Shown here: positions 605 to 53,298 of the stretch, piece after piece
How the letters are laid out: every line of letters starts with the position of its first letter
Position numbering within the stretch: the stretch's first letter is position 1
Source: a phage
Direction: 5' to 3' (one strand)
Length of the DNA stretch: 64,000 nt
Sequence record: PZ445530.1
Notes under the pieces: model-generated
Database searches by the model: none
Seen by the model: only the letters and a program-made list of their open reading frames with translations
What the model was told of the DNA's origin: nothing
Position numbers and translations under genes: made by a program

Positions 605-1387
605 GCATTAGGAGACAGCAAATTGAAATTTATCTACAAAGAACACTACCACAAAGGTGTTGTGTGGAGTCTATTTGACGGGTCTGGTGGTGCAGTCATT
701 GACTGGGCAAAAGCTGGGTACCTGTGCCTGTGCTTTAATGCAGAAGGCGCTGATCACGGCAGTTATGCAGAGGTGATCACCGATCATCCCAACATTCACT
801 ATGTGGACTATTGGATCGACCCGTGGTTCCCTCAGGAAACTTTTTGCATGTATCCGGCTCCAGATTTTATTCTTGCATTTCCTCCGTGCACGCATTTAGC
901 GGTATCAGGTGCTGCACATTTTAAGAAAAAGCTGGCTAAGGACCCCATGATCCAAATTAATGCTGTAAAGGATGCTCGGGTTGCGGAAGAGCTGGGAGAG
1001 ATTTACGATTGCCCGTGGCATGTAGAGAATCCTGTGGGTGTTATGTCCACACTGTGGCGCAAACCTGATTACCGTTTTCACCCTTCGGATTATGGCGGGT
1101 ATTTACCGGAAGATGATGTAAACCCATGGTTTCCTGAATTTATAGCTCCACGTGATGCCTATCCAAAAATAACTTGCGGCTGGATAGGTAATGGATTTAT
1201 AATCCCAGCCACAAAACCTGTCCCGCAAATAGTTGACGCGGTTAGCGGGTATTCCATGCAACACGCCAAGCTGGGTGGAAAGAGTGCAAGAACGAAGATG
1301 ATTCGAAGCCTCACACCACGTGGCTGGGCAAAAGCCGTATTCCTAGCAAACGAGCCTGTAGTAAGGAGCAGAATTAATGGGAAGTAA
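593..1387 (+). CDS. DNA cytosine-5 methyltransferase-like protein; true start probably near 623 because 593 lies inside the terminator hairpin
   Basis: motif I-like LFDGSGG, motif IV-like FPPCT (Pro-Cys), motif VI-like HVENPVGV; AGGAG SD at about 610. Confidence 0.4.
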   Translation: MGLFALGDSKLKFIYKEHYHKGVVWSLFDGSGGAVIDWAKAGYLCLCFNAEGADHGSYAEVITDHPNIHYVDYWIDPWFPQETFCMYPAPDFILAFPPCTHLAVSGAAHFKKKLAKDPMIQINAVKDARVAEELGEIYDCPWHVENPVGVMSTLWRKPDYRFHPSDYGGYLPEDDVNPWFPEFIAPRDAYPKITCGWIGNGFIIPATKPVPQIVDAVSGYSMQHAKLGGKSARTKMIRSLTPRGWAKAVFLANEPVVRSRINGK

Positions 1388-3455
1388 ATTTATGGCATCT
1401 GCATACAACCGTTTCGGTGAGCCAAACCCGAAAGCAACTAAGTATAAAAGTGGGGGAAGTGTGAAACGAGACTATCGTGATGAAAAAGAAGTTGAAACTG
1501 TAGAGACTGTTTTAGAAAATACTAAAATTGTCCCTGTCCCACAACAAAATATCGGTCTGATGGCTGCACAATATTTTGGTGTGCGATCAGCATTGTCACA
1601 AGAAGACGGTGTGACAGTCACTGCAACATATTTCCCATATTACGACCGCTACGGAAATCTGTCCGGTTTCAAAAAGCGTGACTGGACTATTCCTAAAGAA
1701 CAAAGGGGCCACTTCTCCGTTGTTGGCATCGTAAAGGCCAACTCCCAGATGTTTGGTCAAAAGCTGTGTGCATCTTCCAACAACCGTAAGCAGATTAACG
1801 TTTGTGAGGGGGAAGGTGATGTTATTGCAGCATGGCAGGCTGCATATCAGATACAAGTAAAAGGGATTCTCACCAACGCTAAAGCCCCGGCAAAGGTGAA
1901 GCAGTGGGCTAAAGAAGTCCAGGACGGGATCGATGCAGTTATCAACGGTGGTGATCTGGCAGGAAAACCATGCCTGCCTTTTGTTGGAATTAACTGTGGA
2001 TGTGCAAACGCAGTAGATACTTTTGCAAACAATGAGAAGTTTATCCGTAGCTATGGAACAGTTGTGCTGGCAATGGATAACGATGCAGCTAACGAGGTAG
2101 AGAAGCAAAAACACGTCATTAAAGGTGTTGAGGCCACGCACAATATCGCAGCATTTTTGATGGCTGATAACGTTTACCACGTAGAATACCCTGGTGAAGT
2201 AAACGACCCTGACGGTGTAAAAGATATCCGAGACATGCTGAAGGCTAAAAAGCTGGAAGATATTGTCAACATGTTCCGGCATCCTGTTAAATATGTGCCT
2301 GATGCGGTGTCGGATTTAGAAGACTTCTCTATCGAGTCTTTGCGGAAAAAGACTTCCAACGGGGTAGATATCAGCGCAGAGTTCCCAAAACTGCAAAAAA
2401 TGCTAAAAGGCTTGCACAAAGGGACACTCGTAATGCTTACAGGTCCATCAGGTGGCGGTAAAACAACCGTAGCTAAAAAACTGGAACACTGTATTGCAAG
2501 ATACCTAATGGACCCGACATGCCCGAAGGCTGATGACTATGAAGAGGATGATCGTCTATGTATGATCCATCTTGAGGAGGACCCAGAGGAAGCAATTAAC
2601 TCCTTGTATGCAAACCAGTTAGGGTTTGATGTTAAAGAGTTTGTTGAAGATCCTAGCCAGTTTTTAACTGATCAAGAACACGCAGAGATTCACCAATCAT
2701 GGGCAAAAGCTGGAAAAATCAAAGTGTTCAAACATTTCGGGTCTATTCCGGTGGATGAGTTGATTACCAAGCTTAAGCAAATGGTTTGCCTGTACCATTG
2801 CCGTTATATTGTGCTGGATCACCTGTCCATGGTAATTTCAGGGCTTAATGTTAAGGATGAGCGAAAAGAACTGGACATGGCTATGACTCAGCTGGCTGCG
2901 TTTTGTAAGCAGTTTAACGTGTTTATCTTGGTGATCGCTCACCTCAAACGTACAGAGATTGTGCCTCCTAAGGACAAGGATGGTAACCCGTTACCTTTCT
3001 GGTATCCTGTGCGAAAAGAGAATTTGCGAGGATCGGCGGGGCTTGAACAGTTGAGTTGGGTAGTCATAGGTGTCGAGGCCGAAGAAATGGTGGATCGTTC
3101 TCGTGGACGTGTCCGTCTGGTAGGTCTTAAAAACCGTCCAGCAAAAACTCTAGGTATTGCTGACACTTTGGTTATGGACCCGCACACAGGTAAGTTCCAT
3201 GATGCCAGTAATTGGTACTGGGACAAAGAAATGCAAATGTTTACAGACGGAGAAGGTGGGGAGGTTGTTTGGAGACCTCAGGCTATGTTTGAGGATCAGG
3301 AGCATGCAGTTGTAGAAACACCTATGGGCAAGGTTGTGGCTGATAAGGTTGTAACTCCTACTGTTAAGCCTGTTGACACGCAGGAAGACCTCCAGTACGA
3401 TGATCCGTCCTCTGACCATGTTCCTGGTTTTGAGGATGATGAAACACCTTTTTAA
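1377..3455 (+). CDS. bifunctional DNA primase-helicase (T7 gp4-like)
   Basis: TOPRIM-like CEGEGD; Walker A GPSGGGKTT; DnaB-like C-terminal half; acidic tail ending FEDDETPF. Confidence 0.8.
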   Translation: MGSKFMASAYNRFGEPNPKATKYKSGGSVKRDYRDEKEVETVETVLENTKIVPVPQQNIGLMAAQYFGVRSALSQEDGVTVTATYFPYYDRYGNLSGFKKRDWTIPKEQRGHFSVVGIVKANSQMFGQKLCASSNNRKQINVCEGEGDVIAAWQAAYQIQVKGILTNAKAPAKVKQWAKEVQDGIDAVINGGDLAGKPCLPFVGINCGCANAVDTFANNEKFIRSYGTVVLAMDNDAANEVEKQKHVIKGVEATHNIAAFLMADNVYHVEYPGEVNDPDGVKDIRDMLKAKKLEDIVNMFRHPVKYVPDAVSDLEDFSIESLRKKTSNGVDISAEFPKLQKMLKGLHKGTLVMLTGPSGGGKTTVAKKLEHCIARYLMDPTCPKADDYEEDDRLCMIHLEEDPEEAINSLYANQLGFDVKEFVEDPSQFLTDQEHAEIHQSWAKAGKIKVFKHFGSIPVDELITKLKQMVCLYHCRYIVLDHLSMVISGLNVKDERKELDMAMTQLAAFCKQFNVFILVIAHLKRTEIVPPKDKDGNPLPFWYPVRKENLRGSAGLEQLSWVVIGVEAEEMVDRSRGRVRLVGLKNRPAKTLGIADTLVMDPHTGKFHDASNWYWDKEMQMFTDGEGGEVVWRPQAMFEDQEHAVVETPMGKVVADKVVTPTVKPVDTQEDLQYDDPSSDHVPGFEDDETPF

Positions 3456-7892: not shown

Positions 7893-8264
7893 ATGTTAGT
7901 AAAAGGTACCCACACAGTCAAACAACGTATTGAAGTTGAGATTGATGATTGTGAGCTGAAGCATATTCTACGGTCATGTTCTAACGTTTTGCTCCTTAGC
8001 ATTCTCCAAGAGCGAGCGGAGAACGAGTTCTTAAATGCATTGGCAGGCCGTCCGGGTGACTTTTGTGTGCGTAAGCGTGGTGACAACAAGTCATGGCTGT
8101 GGGAAATCGATGCCGACTGGGATTACCACAAAAATGAGGGTATAGATGAGCCTATTCGTGAACTGACGGACAAAGAGATTCAGATGTACAATGAAGTTTG
8201 TCATTGGGCAACACGCCAACAAATTTACCTCGACCCTGTGTGGCTGATTGAAAATAGCCATTGA
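7893..8264 (+). CDS. hypothetical protein
   Basis: ATG after AGAGGAGG SD. Confidence 0.5.
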   Translation: MLVKGTHTVKQRIEVEIDDCELKHILRSCSNVLLLSILQERAENEFLNALAGRPGDFCVRKRGDNKSWLWEIDADWDYHKNEGIDEPIRELTDKEIQMYNEVCHWATRQQIYLDPVWLIENSH

Positions 8265-8340
8265 CAAGAAGTAAGATTAGATATAAGATGCTTCACACAA
8301 ACAGATCGGTGATTTTTAAATAACTAAGGAGACTGCCAAG

Positions 8341-8595
8341 ATGAAAATTACTTTGAAGCCAGATTGCGTTGCAAATGACCGAGCTTTTAAAGATTGCCCA
8401 GTCGGTGCAATTTATGAAGCAGAGTTTTGTGAGAACCCTCTGGTAAAAGCCCTTCTGGAAGAAGGGGCCCCTTTATCACAAGAAGAGATCGATGAGCTGG
8501 AAAACTCAGCACAGTGCCTTACCTTTAAAGATGATGAAGGAGACTCTGTCTGGTGCACTGTTAATGAAGTCGTTTTTGTAAAACCTGAACATTAA
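8341..8595 (+). CDS. hypothetical protein (paralog of 8659..8931)
   Basis: shares KPD..AFKDC..DDEGD.VWCT pattern with next gene. Confidence 0.5.
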   Translation: MKITLKPDCVANDRAFKDCPVGAIYEAEFCENPLVKALLEEGAPLSQEEIDELENSAQCLTFKDDEGDSVWCTVNEVVFVKPEH

Positions 8596-8658
8596 TACTT
8601 GACAACAGCGATAGGACCTAGTACAATGGTCCTATCAAAACGAAAGGGGACCACAACA

Positions 8659-8931
8659 ATGACCAAACAATACCAACGAATTAAAGCCAAGGTTAAGCCA
8701 GACTATCTGGAGAAGGACTCTGCTTTTCGGGACTGCACAGCTGACAAAGTTTATACAGGGGCCGTCCTGTTGAACGATGAACTTGAAGTAGATATTCTGG
8801 GTAAAGAGGCAACTATTAAGGACGACCAAGGCGATTATGTTTGCTGCACCACACGTGAGCTAGAAATCTTAGAATACTTCGGTGAAATCTTCACCTCTCT
8901 TGATGATTACTTAGATGATGAGGAAGCGTGA
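8659..8931 (+). CDS. hypothetical protein (paralog of 8341..8595)
   Basis: ATG after AAAGGGGA SD; KPDYLEKDSAFRDC...DDQGDYVCCT. Confidence 0.5.
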   Translation: MTKQYQRIKAKVKPDYLEKDSAFRDCTADKVYTGAVLLNDELEVDILGKEATIKDDQGDYVCCTTRELEILEYFGEIFTSLDDYLDDEEA

Positions 8932-9320
8932 TGAAAAATATTTGGGATATCGATATCTTTGAAGCCTCTAAGCTTGATGGTGCTGATGGAGTGATTATGG
9001 TGTCTGATGGCAAGGCAACACTAACTTCCGGAGATATCATCTATGCCTTGGACGAGCTGGCGCTTCTGAAATCTACCGGTAACACTTTGGAGGAGCGTCT
9101 TCAAGGATTCGCTTTCAAAGAAGGTACAAATACAGCCATGATGTGCACCACACGGACAGTTCAGGTTGGTAACGGTGTCTATATGATTATTGCTGTGTGT
9201 CCTAAATTCAGCAACGTCAACAAAGATGATGCTGACGCGGTCAACGATGTGGTTGTTCTCTTCGTGGGTGACGCTATGGCAGATCTGATGAATGCAGGAG
9301 AAGCAGCAAATGAAGACTGA
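8928..9320 (+). CDS. hypothetical protein
   Basis: 130-aa ORF, start overlaps upstream stop. Confidence 0.5.
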   Translation: MMKNIWDIDIFEASKLDGADGVIMVSDGKATLTSGDIIYALDELALLKSTGNTLEERLQGFAFKEGTNTAMMCTTRTVQVGNGVYMIIAVCPKFSNVNKDDADAVNDVVVLFVGDAMADLMNAGEAANED

Positions 9321-9612
9321 AAACATCACCCCAGCAGGGTTCTTAAAAGTATACCGTGAACTGCTATATACTACAGAGGACAGTGTTCTAGAGTATCCAG
9401 AATATCTTTTGCTGTATAAGTATCTGCAGGAGGCTGGTGAAAATCTGCCAGTTAGTGCAGAAGGTGGTCCAAACTGGATATACAGTGCATGGAGAAAGGT
9501 TGACATTCTCCCAGACCCAGGTAAAGATATGGTAGTTTGGCAGCTTATCAACAACATCGGGATTCCAATCTTTGATGAAGCTGTTAAAATCTATTTTGAA
9601 CTTGACGATTAA
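9310..9612 (+). CDS. hypothetical protein
   Basis: ATG internal to track ORF 9292..9612. Confidence 0.45.
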   Translation: MKTENITPAGFLKVYRELLYTTEDSVLEYPEYLLLYKYLQEAGENLPVSAEGGPNWIYSAWRKVDILPDPGKDMVVWQLINNIGIPIFDEAVKIYFELDD

Positions 9613-9629
9613 TATCAGGAGACCTTAAG

Positions 9630-9875
9630 ATGACTGAAGCAGTTGCTCGCGCAGGACAGAAAGTACGTTGTGTTGAAGTAGGTTTTGGTGGCAAAGGGTG
9701 TCAAAACTTGACTCAAGGTAAGGAATACGCTGTTATCTCTGGGGGCGGAGACGAAAGTATTGTGTTCGAGGGCCACATCCTGGATGCTGAAAACTTTGAA
9801 ATCTTTGACGACGATGGGGACCCGATCACCTGCCTGCTGGACGGGAATTGGGGAACTTTCGAAGTGATTGGCTAA
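9630..9875 (+). CDS. hypothetical protein
   Basis: 81-aa ORF with SD (AGGAGACC). Confidence 0.5.
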   Translation: MTEAVARAGQKVRCVEVGFGGKGCQNLTQGKEYAVISGGGDESIVFEGHILDAENFEIFDDDGDPITCLLDGNWGTFEVIG

Positions 9876-9958
9876 CAAATACCTATTGTAATTTACAGAA
9901 GGGGATGCTAAAATAGTGTCTCCTTCTATGTTGTTCAAATAAAATCGGAGATTCCATA

Positions 9959-10327
9959 ATGGAACAAATGAACGATCAAGCGTCGGTTGCGATGAACGAG
10001 CAAGAACAACCTCAAGAATTTTTCTTAGGGTTAAGTAAAGATCAAGTGTCTCTTCTGCTAGTGCTTTCTTCTTTCATGGGAAGACTTCAGGAGCTCACAC
10101 AACAGCCAGAGGCTGAACAATTATTTCAGGCTCTGCGTGAAGAAGAAAAATATCGTCGTTTGGACTATGCCTTGGGTTGGGTAGCTCAACAACGAGATAT
10201 GCTGATGGCCCTCTCTGGGACCACAAGTTTTGCAATGGGCCTGTTGGCTCAAGTTCAGGACAAATTAATTCAAGCAGGGTTTGCACACACGGCAAACACT
10301 AACGAAGAACAAGGAGACAAAGAATGA
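9959..10327 (+). CDS. hypothetical protein
   Basis: 122-aa ORF, SD CGGAGA. Confidence 0.5.
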   Translation: MEQMNDQASVAMNEQEQPQEFFLGLSKDQVSLLLVLSSFMGRLQELTQQPEAEQLFQALREEEKYRRLDYALGWVAQQRDMLMALSGTTSFAMGLLAQVQDKLIQAGFAHTANTNEEQGDKE

Positions 10328-11550
10328 GCGTTATTCAACAATTCGCTAACCCGATGAATCCGCGTGAAACTGTTTTACTGGCTCACGGCATGATTAAACG
10401 CGTCAGCATCAAGCCTATCAAAGGTGCTGATCCTACAACAGGTATTAAAACCACTGTGTGGCAAGGTAAGAAAATTGAGTCCAGCCACACCATCTCTTTA
10501 CTGATTTCTGAACTGGATTCCTCTGATAACCTACTTCAAGGTGGTGAAGAAGTTTGGATCAGTATGGGCGATAAGCTGCTTAAACCGGGTCATCAAGACT
10601 CTGTCTCTGTTAAAATTGATGACAAGTGGGAAACCGTAACGCCAGGATGGATCGTAAATATCCCTTTGAAGGCAAACGAGCATAACGGTAAGACCTACTA
10701 CAAAGGCTCACTGGCTAAGATGGTTAAGCTGGGTGCAGGAGAGGCTCCAGCAGCGACTCAGCAGCAAAAACAGCAACAAGGTGCACAATCACAAGGCCAG
10801 AAGCAGAAACCTCAGCAGAATGCCAATCAGGACGTTTTACGCATCTATGGTGATGTGACTCAGATTGTTGGCAACGTGGTTACTGTTAATGACCACAAGA
10901 TTGGCGAAGGTGCTATGGTTGTAACTGATGAGCAGCTTAAAGACCTGGTGGTAGGTGGTCGTGTTGCAGCCATTGTTGACAAAGACACCGGAAACATTAT
11001 CAGTGGTTTCAAAGCCTATCCTCCTAAGGCAGAGAACGGTACTCAAGGCTCTGGTGGCAAGCGTAAATCCTCTTACGACCCTATCGGTGTGGAAACGGGG
11101 CATAGCATCAATGCGTTGCAAATCATCCTGGATCGCGGGTTTAAGGTAGACGACCCACTAGGAGTGGCTAAAACACTACACGTAGTCACTATTGAGCTTA
11201 AGAAAGAGTATGCTCAAGCCACCAACCGAACTGAAGATGAAGTAGGTGCCAGTGTCGGTAATGCGGTGTTGAACGCTTGTCGCCGTATTGACAAGAAAAC
11301 GAAAGTTGATGATTTTGCAGCGGCAATTACTGCAGAAGCAAAAGATGTCTTGACTAATCTGGCTGAGCCGTTGTACGATTGGATCAAGAACGGTGCTGGG
11401 TCAACTGACCATCAAGAACCTCAGGCTGCCAAACAGGAAGCAGCTCCACAGCAAAACACTGTAGACGCTCCTCCTGTAAATGATGGGGAAGATGACCCGA
11501 TGGATCAGAATCCAGCACAGTACGCCTTTGATGATGACATCCCATTCTAA
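10324..11550 (+). CDS. putative single-stranded DNA-binding protein
   Basis: Q-rich linker and C-terminal acidic tail ...FDDDIPF identical in type to bacterial SSB tail; location in replication module. Confidence 0.45.
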   Translation: MSVIQQFANPMNPRETVLLAHGMIKRVSIKPIKGADPTTGIKTTVWQGKKIESSHTISLLISELDSSDNLLQGGEEVWISMGDKLLKPGHQDSVSVKIDDKWETVTPGWIVNIPLKANEHNGKTYYKGSLAKMVKLGAGEAPAATQQQKQQQGAQSQGQKQKPQQNANQDVLRIYGDVTQIVGNVVTVNDHKIGEGAMVVTDEQLKDLVVGGRVAAIVDKDTGNIISGFKAYPPKAENGTQGSGGKRKSSYDPIGVETGHSINALQIILDRGFKVDDPLGVAKTLHVVTIELKKEYAQATNRTEDEVGASVGNAVLNACRRIDKKTKVDDFAAAITAEAKDVLTNLAEPLYDWIKNGAGSTDHQEPQAAKQEAAPQQNTVDAPPVNDGEDDPMDQNPAQYAFDDDIPF

Positions 11551-14760: not shown

Positions 14761-15086
14761 CAGAGATCATCATTTCAACTGCAGGGTATGTGTTCCTGAC
14801 AATCATTGCACTGACTATTTTGGTGACAGTGTATGGGTTTGTTATCCTTCCTATCCTTGAGACATTTAGTTTGTGTCGGTGTTGGAGAAAAGCTTACGGT
14901 CCACAACCATGGAAGGACTGGCCCCACCTGGTGCGCTTAGCGTTCTCTTATGCTTACGATCACTCCAGTAGTGCATGCATAACCGGATACCACGCCCACA
15001 ACTGGAGCTGGGAAGGATTGAGGAAATGGAATGTTACAAAGACCATACCTCTACGCATGTACAAACCTAAAAACAAAGACAGCTGA
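14757..15086 (+). CDS. putative membrane protein
   Basis: N-terminal hydrophobic segment IISTAGYVFLTIIALTILVTVYGFVILPIL. Confidence 0.5.
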   Translation: MTEIIISTAGYVFLTIIALTILVTVYGFVILPILETFSLCRCWRKAYGPQPWKDWPHLVRLAFSYAYDHSSSACITGYHAHNWSWEGLRKWNVTKTIPLRMYKPKNKDS

Positions 15087-15119
15087 TACTTGAAAATTCC
15101 TGGCATATCAAGTGTAAGG

Positions 15120-15700
15120 GGGATTTCTAAAATGGATTTCCTCCTTTTGATATTTCACCGGGCTGGATATTTTAAAATTCTTAGAAAATCAGAAAATGGA
15201 TCGAAAACTAAAATGGATTTTTCAGAGTAGGCGCGACAAGCTGAATAACTCATCCTATCGTTTGCACCATATTCCAGGCCACCATTATAGATTTTCCACA
15301 CATGCTAACCTCCCTCTACTAGAACTTCCTCCACTTGCCCTTAACCTTCTATGGTAACAATCTAACCACTATCTTGAAGTTGCGGTGCAGCTTTCCAAGT
15401 ACTCGATCTGTTTTTCATTTCATGGCTTGGATTTTCTGAAAATTTTTCTCGATAAATTTCTCAGTACTCGATCTGTTTTTCGTTTTCTGAATCGGATTTT
15501 CTGGAAATCGTTCCGGATCTCGACCTGAAATTTTTGGGGACGAAATCGATTTTTCGTTTTCAGAAATGGATTTTTAAAATTTCTATATGGGAATATTTTA
15601 TGGGATACTGTTTTATAGGAAATTGTTACGGAGGGTAATTAGCATGCTAATTAAATTTATTAAATGCGAGGAGTTCTCATTTAGAATTTTGAATGATAAT
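15120..15700. repeat. AT-rich non-coding region with short direct repeats (AAATGGATTT x4, AGTACTCGATCTGTTTTTC x2)
   Basis: no ORF with SD; repeated motifs visible by eye. Confidence 0.5.
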
Positions 15701-15900
15701 CATTCTCGTTTGCAGAATAACGGGCAGGCCCGGTGATTGTCTCCCGGCCCCTGTTGCCCCGGCTTGTTATTATAGTATCACACAGGACAAAGAAAGCAAG
15801 GATTTTTTGCATAAATTTTTAAATGATAATGATAACCGTTCTCATTTTATGCAGCGCCCATCCCCGGTGGTTGTCTTCCCCGTCACCGGTGCCTGCCGTC
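15690..15900 (+). repeat. two copies of an ~80-nt element (AATGATAAT...TTCTC.TTT..GCAG... then GC-rich CCCGG tract)
   Basis: copy 1 ~15690-15770, copy 2 ~15820-15900; followed by three CCTGGCGGGGCC motifs (~15926, ~15989, 23100). Confidence 0.4.
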
Positions 15901-16114
15901 CTTTCGATAGGTATATTGTGCCACCTGGCGGGGCCGCTGTCAACACTTTTCAAAAAATTTTTCTAACCTGATGCGCTAACCGCTGCAACCTGGCGGGGCC
16001 AGCCTGGCAGGACCTAACTGACCAGGTAGGAGAGAATGAAGGCTTGTAAACCTGGTGGGCCTATGCTATAGGACAGGTAACAATTGAAGAGGAGGTACAA
16101 AAATAAAAGGTAAT

Positions 16115-17512: not shown

Positions 17513-17560
17513 TTATTTTTAGATGGCCTTGACTTCAGGGCCATCAATAAAGTAAACTAA
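17513..17560 (+). repeat. repeated intergenic element containing hairpin GATGGCC-TTGACTTCA-GGGCCATC and promoter-like TTGACT/TAAACT (copy 1)
   Basis: near-identical copies at ~18134-18180 and ~21853-21898; variant at ~18472-18520. Confidence 0.55.
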
Positions 17561-17591: not shown

Positions 17592-17711
17592 ATGAGCACT
17601 ACACGCCAATACACAAAGGTAACTATTATCGTTTGCGTTGTCGGTTACATCCTGGCGCAAATGTTAATGAGTAGCGCTAACAGTTTTGCAAAATTTTTCT
17701 TAAATTTTTAA
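17592..17711 (+). CDS. small hydrophobic peptide (39 aa)
   Basis: ATG after AAGGGGG SD; TM-like TIIVCVVGYILAQMLM. Confidence 0.35.
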   Translation: MSTTRQYTKVTIIVCVVGYILAQMLMSSANSFAKFFLNF

Positions 17712-17739
17712 TTGACAAACTAACTTAGATCGATATACT
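17712..17739 (+). promoter_or_regulatory. sigma70-type promoter
   Basis: TTGACA-16nt-TATACT; hairpin GGGAAaactTCCC in 5'UTR. Confidence 0.55.
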
Positions 17740-17790
17740 TAAACACGTAAACGGGAAAACTTCCCAGAGCACACAAAAGGAGAAAACACC

Positions 17791-18132
17791 ATGACTACTA
17801 TGACCGCCGCAGAAAAAGCTATGCAGATCGCCGCGCTGAAAAAACAGATCGCAGACCTTGAGAACAAGATCGACAACTTTGAAATCGACGAGGACAAGTA
17901 CGACGAAAACTATGATGAATGGTTAGACGAGATCTACGGCGAAATTATGATCGGAAACATTTCTTTTCTTCCGTCGCGTATCCTCAAGGAGCTAGATCCT
18001 ATCGCTTACCGCTGCGGATTTAGCGACTACATCGACAGCCTGGATATTGAGGAAGATGAAGAATACCAGGAACTACAGACAGAGTTAGAAGAAGCAAAAG
18101 AAGAGCTTGCGGAGCTGGAAGAAAACGAGTAA
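17791..18132 (+). CDS. highly acidic coiled-coil protein
   Basis: 113 aa, about one third Asp/Glu; SD AAGGAGA. Confidence 0.55.
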   Translation: MTTMTAAEKAMQIAALKKQIADLENKIDNFEIDEDKYDENYDEWLDEIYGEIMIGNISFLPSRILKELDPIAYRCGFSDYIDSLDIEEDEEYQELQTELEEAKEELAELEENE

Positions 18133-21852: not shown

Positions 21853-21898
21853 TTTATTTTTAGATGGCCTTGACTTCAGGGCCATCGATAAAGTAAAT
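21853..21898 (+). repeat. repeated hairpin/promoter-like element (copy 3)
   Basis: TTTATTTTTAGATGGCCTTGACTTCAGGGCCATCGATAAAGTAAAT. Confidence 0.55.
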
Positions 21899-27360: not shown

Positions 27361-27576
27361 TCAGTCCAGCGGTTCATCCTCTACTTCACTGAAATCAATG
27401 TTCATGGTCTCTTCCCAACCATCGATCTCAGCACAAGAGTGGAGTTCTTTAGGGTTTACTCCCAAAGCCTCAGCAACAGAGTCTATATTTAACACCTCTG
27501 GCAGGTATGATTCATCGAATTCAAGGTAAATCAGGCCACGAGTGTTGTCAGCTCCACCAAATATTTCTATCTTCAT
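27361..27576 (-). CDS. small acidic protein (MKIEI... family)
   Basis: 71 aa, acidic, N-terminus MKIEI as in other members. Confidence 0.5.
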   Translation of the reverse strand: MKIEIFGGADNTRGLIYLEFDESYLPEVLNIDSVAEALGVNPKELHSCAEIDGWEETMNIDFSEVEDEPLD

Positions 27577-27697: not shown

Positions 27698-27910
27698 TCA
27701 TAGTCTACCACCCCTGAACTCTTCGTGCTCAGGCATAATAGAGAACCAGATATCTACGATGTCTTCCCACGTTAGGTCATCAGCCTCAGGATCTACCTGG
27801 AGCGAAGATGGAGAATCTTCAGAATCTAAGTTTTCCTCTTTCACTGGCTCAGCCAAGGGACATATAGTCACTCCTTTGGATGTCTCTTCAGATGCATGTG
27901 TGTTTATCAT
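27698..27910 (-). CDS. small acidic protein
   Basis: 70 aa, Asp/Glu-rich. Confidence 0.45.
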   Translation of the reverse strand: MINTHASEETSKGVTICPLAEPVKEENLDSEDSPSSLQVDPEADDLTWEDIVDIWFSIMPEHEEFRGGRL

Positions 27911-30400: not shown

Positions 30401-30679
30401 TTACCAGAGGGTCTTCTGCATCTTTAGTATTATACCACCCGTGAATAACCAGAGTCCCACACTCTGTTTCATATCTAACTGGAACTGTTCTGCAGTTTCC
30501 TCATCCATCTCTAAGATCTCCATAAGGTACTTGATGTTAGGAAGGTATGCAGCTGTTACAGTTCCCTCTACCAGACCTTCGGGCCAACCTACATCCGGAT
30601 GACAAGTAGGAACCAGATTAGTCAGCTTAATAGTGTACGCTTTTTCTGCACGAGCCTTCAGTAACGGGTCAATCTTCAT
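30401..30679 (-). CDS. small acidic protein (family member); 3' end may continue in another frame to 30351
   Basis: alternate frame is open to a TAA that overlaps the next ATG and encodes a family-like C-terminus ...YEILGPLNLEED. Confidence 0.45.
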   Translation of the reverse strand: MKIDPLLKARAEKAYTIKLTNLVPTCHPDVGWPEGLVEGTVTAAYLPNIKYLMEILEMDEETAEQFQLDMKQSVGLWLFTGGIILKMQKTLW

Positions 30680-31029
30680 TATTCGTCCTCCTCTTCGGTG
30701 CCTGCTTCCAGTAATAAGTTAAGAATATCTTCTGCACAAGGCTCATAGAACTCTTGGCCTTCATTATCAATGATTTTGTAGTCATCTCCACGAATAATCA
30801 GGGGATCACTCTCAAAATTATCGAGACCTTTAACAACGACAACACGATCGATTGCCATCATTGTAAGAACTTTATCGACATCTTCCTCTGCTACACCATA
30901 CTGCAGCAGAATGTCTTTGGTAGGAGGAACAGCATCCACCACAACGCCGTTACCAAAACCTTCCGGAAGTTTAGCTAAAATATCTTCCGGAACCACATTC
31001 ACATCAAAACCGGTAATTTCTACTTTCAT
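30679..31029 (-). CDS. small acidic protein (family member)
   Basis: MKVEI... start, ends ...EAGTEEEDE; shares GFG...EED...VVV pattern with 31030..31290 and 32454..32723. Confidence 0.55.
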   Translation of the reverse strand: MKVEITGFDVNVVPEDILAKLPEGFGNGVVVDAVPPTKDILLQYGVAEEDVDKVLTMMAIDRVVVVKGLDNFESDPLIIRGDDYKIIDNEGQEFYEPCAEDILNLLLEAGTEEEDE

Positions 31030-31290
31030 TTACAGCACCTCTTCGTCAACTACTTCATAAAAATGGCCTGGGATTGCAATAGCGTTCTCACCTTCACCTA
31101 CAAACACAGTTCCGTCAAGAATCAACATCATAAGAATTTCTGTAATATCCTCTTCCGGAACGTTGCCAAAACCTTTAATCAGCTCGTAGGTTGGAATATT
31201 TACCTCTAAGATGTCACCATCTTTAGAACGGAAATCAACACCGTCCTGAATCTCTGCCGTTTCAAGGTTTTTCAATTTAATCTTCATCAA
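31030..31290 (-). CDS. small acidic protein (family member)
   Basis: MMKIKL... start, ends ...YEVVDEEVL. Confidence 0.55.
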   Translation of the reverse strand: MMKIKLKNLETAEIQDGVDFRSKDGDILEVNIPTYELIKGFGNVPEEDITEILMMLILDGTVFVGEGENAIAIPGHFYEVVDEEVL

Positions 31291-48512: not shown

Positions 48513-49120
48513 TCTTCTTGGGCCTCTTTAACATCAATATACTTGCACACAATCTCCGATGCACACTCCCAAGGTGCACCTTCAGGGTTTACAACATCAA
48601 ACTCAACCCCTTTTATTCCGTTCTTTTCCAGACTTAGATAGGTTCTGGAATCATTTCCCCAGTCATATCCTACACGGTGAATACGGAACAACAACAGATC
48701 TCCACCTGTGCTGTATGCGTACTCGCTAAGGCATGCCAGCTCCTCTTTGAATCCCCCATCGGAGTAAACAATAACCCCTTTACCTTCAGGGAAATCTTTC
48801 TTCAAAGATGCGACTGCGGCTTTACCGAAAGCATCTTCACCAAAGATAGGTTTAATCAGATTTTCACTACAATGGATCATCCATTCTCGCGGAGAAACAT
48901 GCTTGCCGTCTATCATTAAGAAAGGGCAAGGCTCTTCTTTGTAGTGGCGGTCATAAAGTGCATTCCAGAGTTGAGGAGTTACACCAGCTGCCTTAATTGC
49001 CACACTGAAGAGCATTTCCTTAACCTCACGGTGGTGTGAGTTAGGAATAGCTTCCAACAAGAGATCTGCAATGTGATCCTTACCACTGCTGGGTGGGGCG
49101 TTAAGAACAATAATATCCAT
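48506..49120 (-). CDS. P-loop nucleotide kinase-like protein (possible dNMP kinase)
   Basis: N-terminal NAPPSSGKD P-loop variant of the SGKD type. Confidence 0.4.
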   Translation of the reverse strand: MDIIVLNAPPSSGKDHIADLLLEAIPNSHHREVKEMLFSVAIKAAGVTPQLWNALYDRHYKEEPCPFLMIDGKHVSPREWMIHCSENLIKPIFGEDAFGKAAVASLKKDFPEGKGVIVYSDGGFKEELACLSEYAYSTGGDLLLFRIHRVGYDWGNDSRTYLSLEKNGIKGVEFDVVNPEGAPWECASEIVCKYIDVKEAQEEC

Positions 49121-49323
49121 TAAAAACCTCCGTGGTATTCTTCAACTGCATCAATAATACTTTTACACTTATCTACCAGCTCGTTAGCCACTACAGCATC
49201 GTCTTCCCAAACAGCCTCCTCAATCTGATCAAGCAATGATCGCATCTTACTCATCATTTCTGGGATAAAGTTTTCTGAAAAGCTGTCTGGAATTGTTAAC
49301 TCTAGTGTCATTTCGGTCTCCAA
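49120..49323 (-). CDS. hypothetical protein
   Basis: 67-aa acidic ORF. Confidence 0.4.
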   Translation of the reverse strand: METEMTLELTIPDSFSENFIPEMMSKMRSLLDQIEEAVWEDDAVVANELVDKCKSIIDAVEEYHGGF

Positions 49324-52385: not shown

Positions 52386-52966
52386 TAAGCATCTGCGAGA
52401 TCGGCCTTACCTTGTACCAAATTGATCCCATCTAGGAACCCTGGTTCAGATACTTCGCAGGCCTTAACCATCAACTTTTTATCCATCGTAACAGGTTTCT
52501 TCACAGTATGCTCTTTACCTGTCTTTTTGTCAAGCTTTTTCTTCTCCTCAAAAGCAAGTTCTTCAGGAAGATGACTACGAGCAAACTTTTTGGCAGTTGT
52601 TGGTGTCACTGTGTGAACCTTAAACAGGCCGTCATTTTCACAATCAGCTAAAGCATCCCAAAGCATAACTTCGAGACCGTAAAACAACCCAGCCAGTTCA
52701 CGTGTGGCATCCCCGCGAGATCCGAAGGAAAGTCCTTCCATAACCACGGTGTCAACTCCGTGCGTGTGGATATAATATCTGACCTGTTTGCAGATCCAGT
52801 CAATACGCTCAGCAGCTGTTGCAAAAGAAACCGTCCCTGGTTTCTTCTCTTTTGCAGATGAGCTTTGAGTTCGTAACACAACCTTATGAACAGGCTTTCC
52901 ATCGTCCCATACAACGCAAGCTGTGTGTGTCAACGACTGGTCTATGGATAATAGACGCTCTCTCAT
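52337..52966 (-). CDS. RuvC-like Holliday junction resolvase
   Basis: LLSIDQSLTHTACVVWD (Asp), VVMEGLSFG (Glu), ADLADAYWIGRAHL (Asp) in RuvC order. Confidence 0.5.
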   Translation of the reverse strand: MRERLLSIDQSLTHTACVVWDDGKPVHKVVLRTQSSSAKEKKPGTVSFATAAERIDWICKQVRYYIHTHGVDTVVMEGLSFGSRGDATRELAGLFYGLEVMLWDALADCENDGLFKVHTVTPTTAKKFARSHLPEELAFEEKKKLDKKTGKEHTVKKPVTMDKKLMVKACEVSEPGFLDGINLVQGKADLADAYWIGRAHLEGLSQSVK

Positions 52967-53298
52967 ACTTCCTCATCCTCCTCTCCTTCATCAGGAGCAT
53001 AAGCCTTATCTTTGAACAAGACGAGAGAGCAAAGCTTAACATCTGTTTCCACACTGGTGAACATGCATAACCGCTCGCCCTCAATCAGTTCACAATCCTC
53101 TTTTAAAACAGCAGACCATACACGGTCATCTGCGTAATCATCAGTGTACAGGATGTATGAAATGGTGTCATCTTCATACAACCGCCACATACCTGTGGCA
53201 ACAACGAATGTATTTTTTGTTTTAAGTGTCCCTGTTGTATGATCATCCTCAAAAACAGCTTCCATAATTGCACTATCTACAGAATTTTTAGTCATCAA
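52963..53298 (-). CDS. hypothetical acidic protein
   Basis: 111-aa ORF. Confidence 0.45.
   Translation of the reverse strand: MMTKNSVDSAIMEAVFEDDHTTGTLKTKNTFVVATGMWRLYEDDTISYILYTDDYADDRVWSAVLKEDCELIEGERLCMFTSVETDVKLCSLVLFKDKAYAPDEGEEDEEV

Follow-up and report, generated by a model that had tools for sequence, protein, structure and literature searches.

The gene and its surroundings

The window analysed here, a 64,000-nucleotide stretch of sequence record PZ445530.1, comes from an rV5-like Vequintavirus (E. coli myovirus relatives), and the 901 bases around the gene under study are 99.8% identical to Escherichia phage A51.2, in which the gene is annotated as a hypothetical protein. The features of the locus are collected in Table 1. 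The promoter is a member of a series of plus-strand TTGACA promoters that precede small genes between 16 and 24 kb, and the A/T-rich stretch next to it is a possible UP element, to judge by its sequence.

Table 1. Features of the acidic gene and its flanks, in window coordinates
Feature	Position	Strand	Support
Hairpin repeat, upstream copy, after the stop codon of the preceding gene; bounds the cassette	17516..17557	+	-25 kcal/mol, z = -6.6
A/T-rich stretch aaaatttttcttaaatttttaa, abutting the -35 hexamer TTGACA on its upstream side	17684..17711	+	sequence reading
Sigma-70-type promoter, TTGACA-16 nt-TATACT	17712..17739	+	11/12 consensus positions
Ribosome-binding site AAAGGAG, ATG 8 nt downstream	17776..17782	+	sequence reading
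CDS, 113-aa acidic protein (PHROG 9294)	17791..18132	+	phrog_9294 1.3e-53, 72 homologs, dN/dS 0.07
N-terminal arm, helix aa 6-28, roughly charge-neutral	17806..17874	+	AF2 model
Conserved acidic alpha/beta core, aa 34-83, helix/beta-hairpin/helix/helix	17890..18039	+	alignments, AF2 model
C-terminal arm, Glu-rich helix aa 90-111	18058..18123	+	
Hairpin repeat, downstream copy, 6 nt past the stop codon	18138..18179	+	-21.1 kcal/mol, z = -5.5
Hairpin repeat, third copy	21857-21898	+	

The product has a mass of 13.3 kDa, a pI of 4.05, and a net charge of -26, with 35 aspartate and glutamate residues (31%) and nine lysine and arginine residues. Among the 116 non-overlapping open reading frames of at least 60 amino acids in the window, for which the median aspartate plus glutamate content is 13.7%, it ranks first in acidity both by that fraction and by charge per residue. 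The original prediction had described a 113-residue protein, about one third aspartate and glutamate, with its own consensus promoter; this observation is confirmed in all particulars by the composition, the calculated pI and charge, the near-perfect agreement of the promoter with the sigma-70 consensus, and a strong ribosome-binding site in addition.

The 42-nt repeat that flanks the gene, TTTTTAGATGGCCTTGACTYCAGGGCCATCRATAAAGTAAAY, occurs three times in the window where no copies are expected, each time directly after a stop codon, and its predicted structure is a long stem-loop of high stability (-21 to -25 kcal/mol, z -5.5 to -7.8). The sequence flanking the hairpin is U-rich on the 5' side and A-rich on the 3' side, and because this polarity is the wrong one the hairpin is not a canonical intrinsic terminator on either strand. 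No Rfam match was found for the repeat, which may be an RNA processing element (RNase III-type) or a 3'-stabilising element between early cassettes. Upstream, the gene-poor region at about 15100-16050 contains degenerate direct repeats, with units of 47-62 nt at 15389, 15454, and 15528 (spacing 65-74 nt), as well as several shorter repeat families; these could be iterons, mark a replication origin, or form a cluster of regulatory or promoter elements.

A complete single copy of the gene occurs in each of 114 phage records, compared with a Vequintavirus total of about 121; the large subunit of ribonucleotide reductase encoded in the window is found in 121 records, some of them partial genomes. 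The identity profile of the gene across records resembles that of ribonucleotide reductase, and comparison with a 90%-identical ortholog gives a dN/dS of 0.07 at a dS of about 1. The gene is therefore real and strongly constrained, a genus-level core gene under strong purifying selection. Records MG065635-MG065666, labelled as Campylobacter phages (C2, D1, C5, and others), are 99.4-99.8% identical to E. coli rV5-like phages in both the acidic gene and the ribonucleotide reductase gene; the assignment to Campylobacter jejuni as host is probably an error, or else the records contain contaminating sequence.

The core domain and its variable arms

Conservation among divergent homologs is concentrated in the middle of the protein, while the arms are variable or missing. 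The core has the motif YDxxLDExYG-x5-G-x5-SRxLKELDPIAYRCGFSDY, in which, across 138 diverse sequences, D69 is invariant and Y41, L45, S62, L65, P70, A72, Y73, G76, and D79 are each at least 90% conserved. An AlphaFold2 (AF2) model of the core alone has a pLDDT of 94.5, which is above the confidence for the full-length protein. Acidic character is conserved at positions 42, 43, 46, and 47, which form one helix face, and at 67, 69, 79, 82, and 87 (for example, 0.88 at residue 46, 0.97 at 47, and 1.0 at both 69 and 79). Several of the invariant residues appear to be structural, with S62 and D69-P70 as helix caps, and G76 likewise.

The original prediction called this an acidic coiled-coil protein. 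The acidity stands; coiled coil is an incomplete label, as the conserved part is the alpha/beta core and the helices that could be read as coiled coil are the variable arms. Both arms have hydrophobic stripes of a/d type by sequence (I13, L16, I20, L23, and I27 in the N-terminal arm; Y92, L95, L99, A102, L106, and L109 in the C-terminal arm), and in the AF2 monomer model they are paired within the molecule, packing on each other as a hairpin. The protein is an elaborated member of a domain family built on a core of about 45 residues, and the two flanking helices are lineage-specific.

Searches with the single protein and with profiles against Pfam, NCBIfam, PADLOC, and PDB sequences returned no match covering the core, and sub-threshold coiled-coil noise on the arms was their sole yield. 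Among this noise were weak matches to scaffold and tail-chaperone profiles, as would be expected for a virion assembly, scaffolding, or injected internal protein; however, they lie far below threshold and on the variable arms. When 1.84 billion representative proteins were screened with a profile of the 49-residue core, 3,592 clusters (50% identity) were retrieved at E<=1e-3, with 1,381 remaining at E<=1e-10; most are proteins of 50-150 amino acids. The window protein itself matches the core HMM with 95.3 bits (E = 3e-28), and while its full-length match is to phrog_9294 (1.3e-53), the core also matches phrog_9396 and phrog_37123 (about 1e-10). These three PHROGs are groups without assigned function that split the family, and the core profile search unites them. 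Foldseek against predicted viral structures found the same fold (query TM-scores 0.72-0.88) only in uncharacterised proteins, from phages of Clavibacter, Gordonia, and Pseudomonas and from uncultured siphoviruses.

Annotated carriers include the Vequintaviruses and phages of Pseudomonas (PAK_P3/KPP10-like and PAK_P1-like), Vibrio, Proteus, Providencia, Klebsiella, Serratia, Acinetobacter, Pelagibacter, and Microbacterium; the hosts thus span Proteobacteria, Actinobacteria, and marine SAR11, and every member in the annotated phages is labelled hypothetical. In viral metagenomes a member typically consists of the core and a short acidic tail; the median length is 74 amino acids, and many members have 61-68. 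The core was found in one of 72,556 plasmids, PLSDB CP057073.1 (137,565 bp, an E. coli "non-mobilizable plasmid", match at 15063-15185), which is most likely an rV5-like phage genome mis-binned as a plasmid, and at one locus in 185,579 one-per-species bacterial genomes. The family is essentially restricted to phages, with next to no occurrence in plasmids or cellular genomes, and plasmid leading regions accordingly gave no informative context for it. No papers were retrieved in a literature search for the core motif. Small acidic early phage proteins are already a known kind, but this fold and family appear to be undescribed, and unusually large and widespread.

Some relatives are much longer. 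Proteins of 211-837 amino acids with two or three tandem copies of the core (P0073-P0077, P0080, P0082, and P0104; also L093 at 8001-10514) have unrelated modules after the cores, with repeated (G)AETFGAE or AESF-like linkers between the modules; in several of these proteins the C-terminal end is a transmembrane helix. They contain no Pfam domains and therefore offer no fusion-partner clues. The contig that encodes P0104 is 145 kb long, with all genes co-directional and almost no Pfam hits. The long relatives may be polyproteins with protease processing sites.

Acidity, early placement, and gene neighbourhood

Acidity is kept throughout the family. All 199 of the small members retrieved have a pI below 5, with a median aspartate plus glutamate content of 28% and a median net charge of -23; the 78 members from viral contigs have net charges from -4 to -33, and acidity is maintained in members with unrelated extensions, such as PM16 gp02, PS3 gp5, and PAK_P3 gp86. 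Extreme acidity is thus a trait of the whole family and not of the window protein alone. Six further small acidic open reading frames are found in the window, all on the minus strand (27361-27576, 27698-27910, 30679-31029, 31030-31287, 49120-49311, and 52963-53295), with 22-27% aspartate plus glutamate, pI near 4, and no Pfam match in any of them. They are equally valid candidates for proteins of the decoy type considered below. A scan of these other acidic reading frames and of the immediate neighbours of the gene found none of the known anti-restriction families.

The gene or its homologs occupy early positions in phages of three unrelated types. PM16, a T7-like phage of Proteus, has its homolog as gene 2, and the T7-like Providencia phage PS3 has two homologs, genes 2 and 5; in each case they lie in the early region at the left end, upstream of the genes for primase and helicase. 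The homolog in Pseudomonas phage PAK_P3 is gp86 (core match 41.6 bits), which has its own annotated promoter and lies inside gp74-gp112, the early region as determined by RNA-seq (PMC4933390). Like the window protein, gp86 combines the core domain with high acidity (28% aspartate plus glutamate, pI 4.05) and its own promoter, here in an experimentally defined early region, but it has other N- and C-terminal extensions (132 amino acids). Early expression has therefore been demonstrated by RNA-seq for a region that contains a homolog, while for the window gene it is suggested by promoter and placement. As separate observations, the two core genes in PS3 (L008, a 41-kb podovirus) are paralogs, at 1683-1886 and 2931-3131 with 62.8 and 63.9 bits, which suggests duplication and possible diversification of target specificity; and in the PAK_P3 record (L095) an antisense RNA based on RNA-seq, as17 (897-2492, minus strand), overlaps gp86 and its neighbours, which hints at antisense control of gp86 in that phage.

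The early timing also bears on a role in the virion. The polyprotein-like nature of some long relatives, with their repeated linker motifs, would suit such a role, as would the position of the gene within a few kb of terminase and portal genes in marine contigs. However, the window gene has a sigma-70 promoter amid cassettes of early type and the PAK_P3 homolog is transcribed early and not late, and a virion function is accordingly considered very improbable.

A small, highly acidic protein that is encoded by a genus core gene and co-expressed with many small uncharacterised early proteins could also act on a partner from the phage itself, as an acidic chaperone for some basic protein or as an antidote to it; a nuclease, a histone-like protein, and a toxic early protein are examples of such partners. 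If the partner were a dedicated one, the two genes should occur together, but no partner gene is conserved in the neighbourhood of 80 viral loci (57 of them distinct), which makes this explanation improbable.

The same lack of a linked partner gene is in keeping with another possibility, that the protein is a host-takeover factor with a shape-specific interface for a conserved host protein, for example a subunit of RNA polymerase, a sigma factor, a protease, or a protein that acts in replication or recombination, and that its acidity is secondary. Early expression is consistent with this, as is the near invariance of the motif LKELDPIAYRCGFSDY across phages of distant hosts; the conservation of the motif and the behaviour of a genus-level core gene under strong purifying selection fit a specific host-takeover interaction equally well. 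However, many of the invariant residues look structural (helix caps, proline, glycine, and core hydrophobics) and need not form a recognition surface, and negative charge is the one property kept everywhere, including in unrelated tails and arms. A takeover factor of this kind is considered unlikely, though less so than a chaperone or a virion protein.

Known DNA mimics, restriction, and a possible decoy function

Small size, a pI near 4, and early expression are hallmarks common to the DNA mimics Ocr, ArdA, Arn, and gp5.9. The window protein, at 13.3 kDa, pI 4.05, and 31% aspartate plus glutamate, agrees with the general description of the class (small, pI of about 3-5, and 20-30% Asp/Glu), and so does the family as a whole. 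The resemblance to Ocr extends to length (113 versus 117 amino acids), a pI of about 4, a mostly helical structure, an acidic C-terminal tail, and an early gene with its own strong promoter that, for both proteins, host RNA polymerase would read. The original prediction had proposed a mimic of the Ocr type that inhibits restriction or BREX systems. The decoy or mimic part of that proposal is supported by acidity across the family, a conserved acidic helix face, early genes, and occurrence in phages only, but the Ocr-type part is not, as there is no similarity in sequence or fold. Ocr (PF08684, T7 gp0.3) is not among the families that Pfam scans reported for the protein itself (E<=1) or for sets of 39 and 138 relatives, PDB sequence searches returned nothing relevant to Ocr, and the predicted structure, a confident fold, resembles neither Ocr nor ArdA: it has neither the all-helical, elongated shape by which Ocr, as a dimer, mimics bent B-form DNA nor the fold of the ArdA domains.

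The comparison with ArdA and sArdC (PF07275) gave a similar result. Aligning the family alignments with hhalign to a 27-sequence ArdA profile, a shallow one whose members are at least 64% identical to Tn916 ArdA, gave probabilities of 0.07-0.43%, and 2W82 alone as target gave 0.1%. A likeness between the motif ...YIDYQAYGRDL in ArdA and ...ELDPIAYRCGFSDY in the window protein is superficial. ArdA and sArdC are carried on conjugative plasmids, ICEs, and chromosomes, whereas the window family is nearly absent from plasmids and genomes. A link to OrbA, the BREX inhibitor of phage ICP1, was considered by comparing descriptions and rejected: PSI-BLAST found no homolog of OrbA outside ICP1 (PMC11580459), while the present family has thousands of members, and its 12 Vibrio phage records do not include ICP1.

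Plating data from the BASEL collection are informative about restriction. Phages Bas57-59 are Vequintaviruses, the Bas59 ortholog is 96% identical to the window protein, and the study described Vequintavirinae as "exceptionally susceptible" to R-M systems (PMC8594841). Bas57-59 have an efficiency of plating (EOP) of about 1e-4 on the type II system EcoRI and form no plaques on EcoRV (type II) or EcoCFT_II (type III) (PMC8594841). Protection against type II and type III systems is excluded under the conditions of the BASEL panel, in which BREX was not among the systems. The type I systems give a different picture: EOP is 0.06-0.83 on EcoKI, despite 9-15 sites in Bas57-59 (nine in Bas58 and 15 in Bas59), and 0.22-1.0 on EcoCFT_I despite four or five sites, while Bas01, with three EcoKI sites, has an EOP of about 1e-4 on EcoKI (PMC8594841).

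Resistance to type I systems only is the signature of Ocr and ArdA, and the very short stand-alone acidic domains sArdN and sArdC are able to inhibit type I R-M systems including EcoKI (PMC12548430), so that the narrower form of the original prediction, an inhibitor in the manner of Ocr or ArdA that acts specifically on type I R-M, on BREX, or on both, has to be weighed as a special case of the decoy model. However, the phenotype does not follow the gene. The phi92-like phage Bas60, with 12 EcoKI sites, is as resistant as Bas57-59 (EcoKI EOP 0.13-0.72; PMC8594841) but has no family member in the 98% of its genome that was searched (best hmmsearch E = 2.4, compared with 3e-28 for the window gene), and because it is equally resistant without the gene, type I resistance is not attributable to the gene; the plating data speak neither for nor against an action on type I systems. 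In addition, there is no homology to Ocr or ArdA, and the family is absent from plasmids, where such inhibitors are common. A specific type I or BREX inhibitor is thus quite unlikely.

The re-reading of the raw data exposed a separate observation. Bas57-62, with 9-15 EcoKI sites, plate at 0.06-0.8, as opposed to the roughly 10^4-fold restriction of a siphovirus with three sites (PMC8594841, S1 Data, S5 Table). This evasion of type I restriction by large E. coli myoviruses, which deserves mapping, is not explained by rarity of sites and is untied to the gene studied here. The window contains six EcoKI sites, at 410, 7336, 12156, 31347, 42048, and 56452.

Other small, acidic, early phage proteins block host DNA-binding proteins, among them T7 gp5.9 (RecBCD/MukBEF) and T4 Arn (McrBC/H-NS), and each protein of this kind belongs to its own structural family. 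The window protein is like gp5.9 and Arn in its size, its charge, its early timing, and the general logic of a decoy, but no sequence or structural relation to them was detected, and none of these proteins is known to belong to a family as large or as broad.

Given these comparisons, the reading favoured here, at a probability of roughly 0.4, is that the gene product is a polyanionic protein, made early, that serves as a decoy for some nucleic-acid-binding protein of the host. Host RNA polymerase would transcribe the gene from its strong sigma-70 promoter right after DNA entry, to judge from that promoter, and the product would be an abundant cytoplasmic early protein, the working part of which would be the compact alpha/beta mini-domain of 45 residues. 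Helix-capping and core residues (S62, D69-P70, G76, Y41, L45, L65, A72, and Y73) would fix the core fold, which would present a conserved acidic surface composed of D42, E43, D46, E47, E67, D79, D82, and E87. This surface could then occupy and block the positively charged nucleic-acid-binding site of the host protein, which may be an enzyme of a DNA-targeting defence or else a conserved protein of the nucleoid or of DNA metabolism. The extra helices of the Vequintavirus proteins would add a hairpin stalk and more negative charge, and may mediate oligomerisation. The spread of the family over phages of hosts from unrelated phyla, together with the nearly invariant core motif, points to either a broadly conserved target or generic recognition of DNA-binding surfaces.

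The decoy reading fits the acidity of the whole family, the conservation of acidic residues at defined positions of the core, the confident fold, the early placement, and the restriction to phages. Against it, neither the sequence nor the fold resembles any known mimic, the Vequintaviruses are heavily restricted by type II and type III systems, and acidity is common in small phage proteins, with six other open reading frames in the window exceeding 22% aspartate plus glutamate. The conserved non-acidic residues and the behaviour as a core gene are also unusual, since anti-defence decoys tend to be patchy in distribution and fast-evolving. A broader proposal, held more tentatively and somewhat unlikely as it stands, is that the mini-domain represents an undescribed and widespread class of phage early protein, with a new fold that mimics nucleic acid and neutralises a widely conserved DNA-binding protein of bacteria, whether nucleoid-associated or a common component of DNA-targeting defence.

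Two E. coli and Pseudomonas systems offer tractable representatives of the family, namely the E. coli BASEL phages Bas57-59 and gp86 of P. aeruginosa phage PAK_P3. If the decoy reading is true, the family would be a new structural family among the few phage nucleic-acid mimics, with a far wider spread than Ocr or ArdA, and its core of about 45 residues would be small enough for a useful tool. If the mini-domain is indeed a nucleic-acid-mimic fold with a broadly conserved target, it would be among the commonest phage counter-host modules still unnamed. Whatever the mechanism, thousands of "hypothetical proteins" are now recognisable by one short profile as members of a consistently early, strongly constrained, and phage-specific family.
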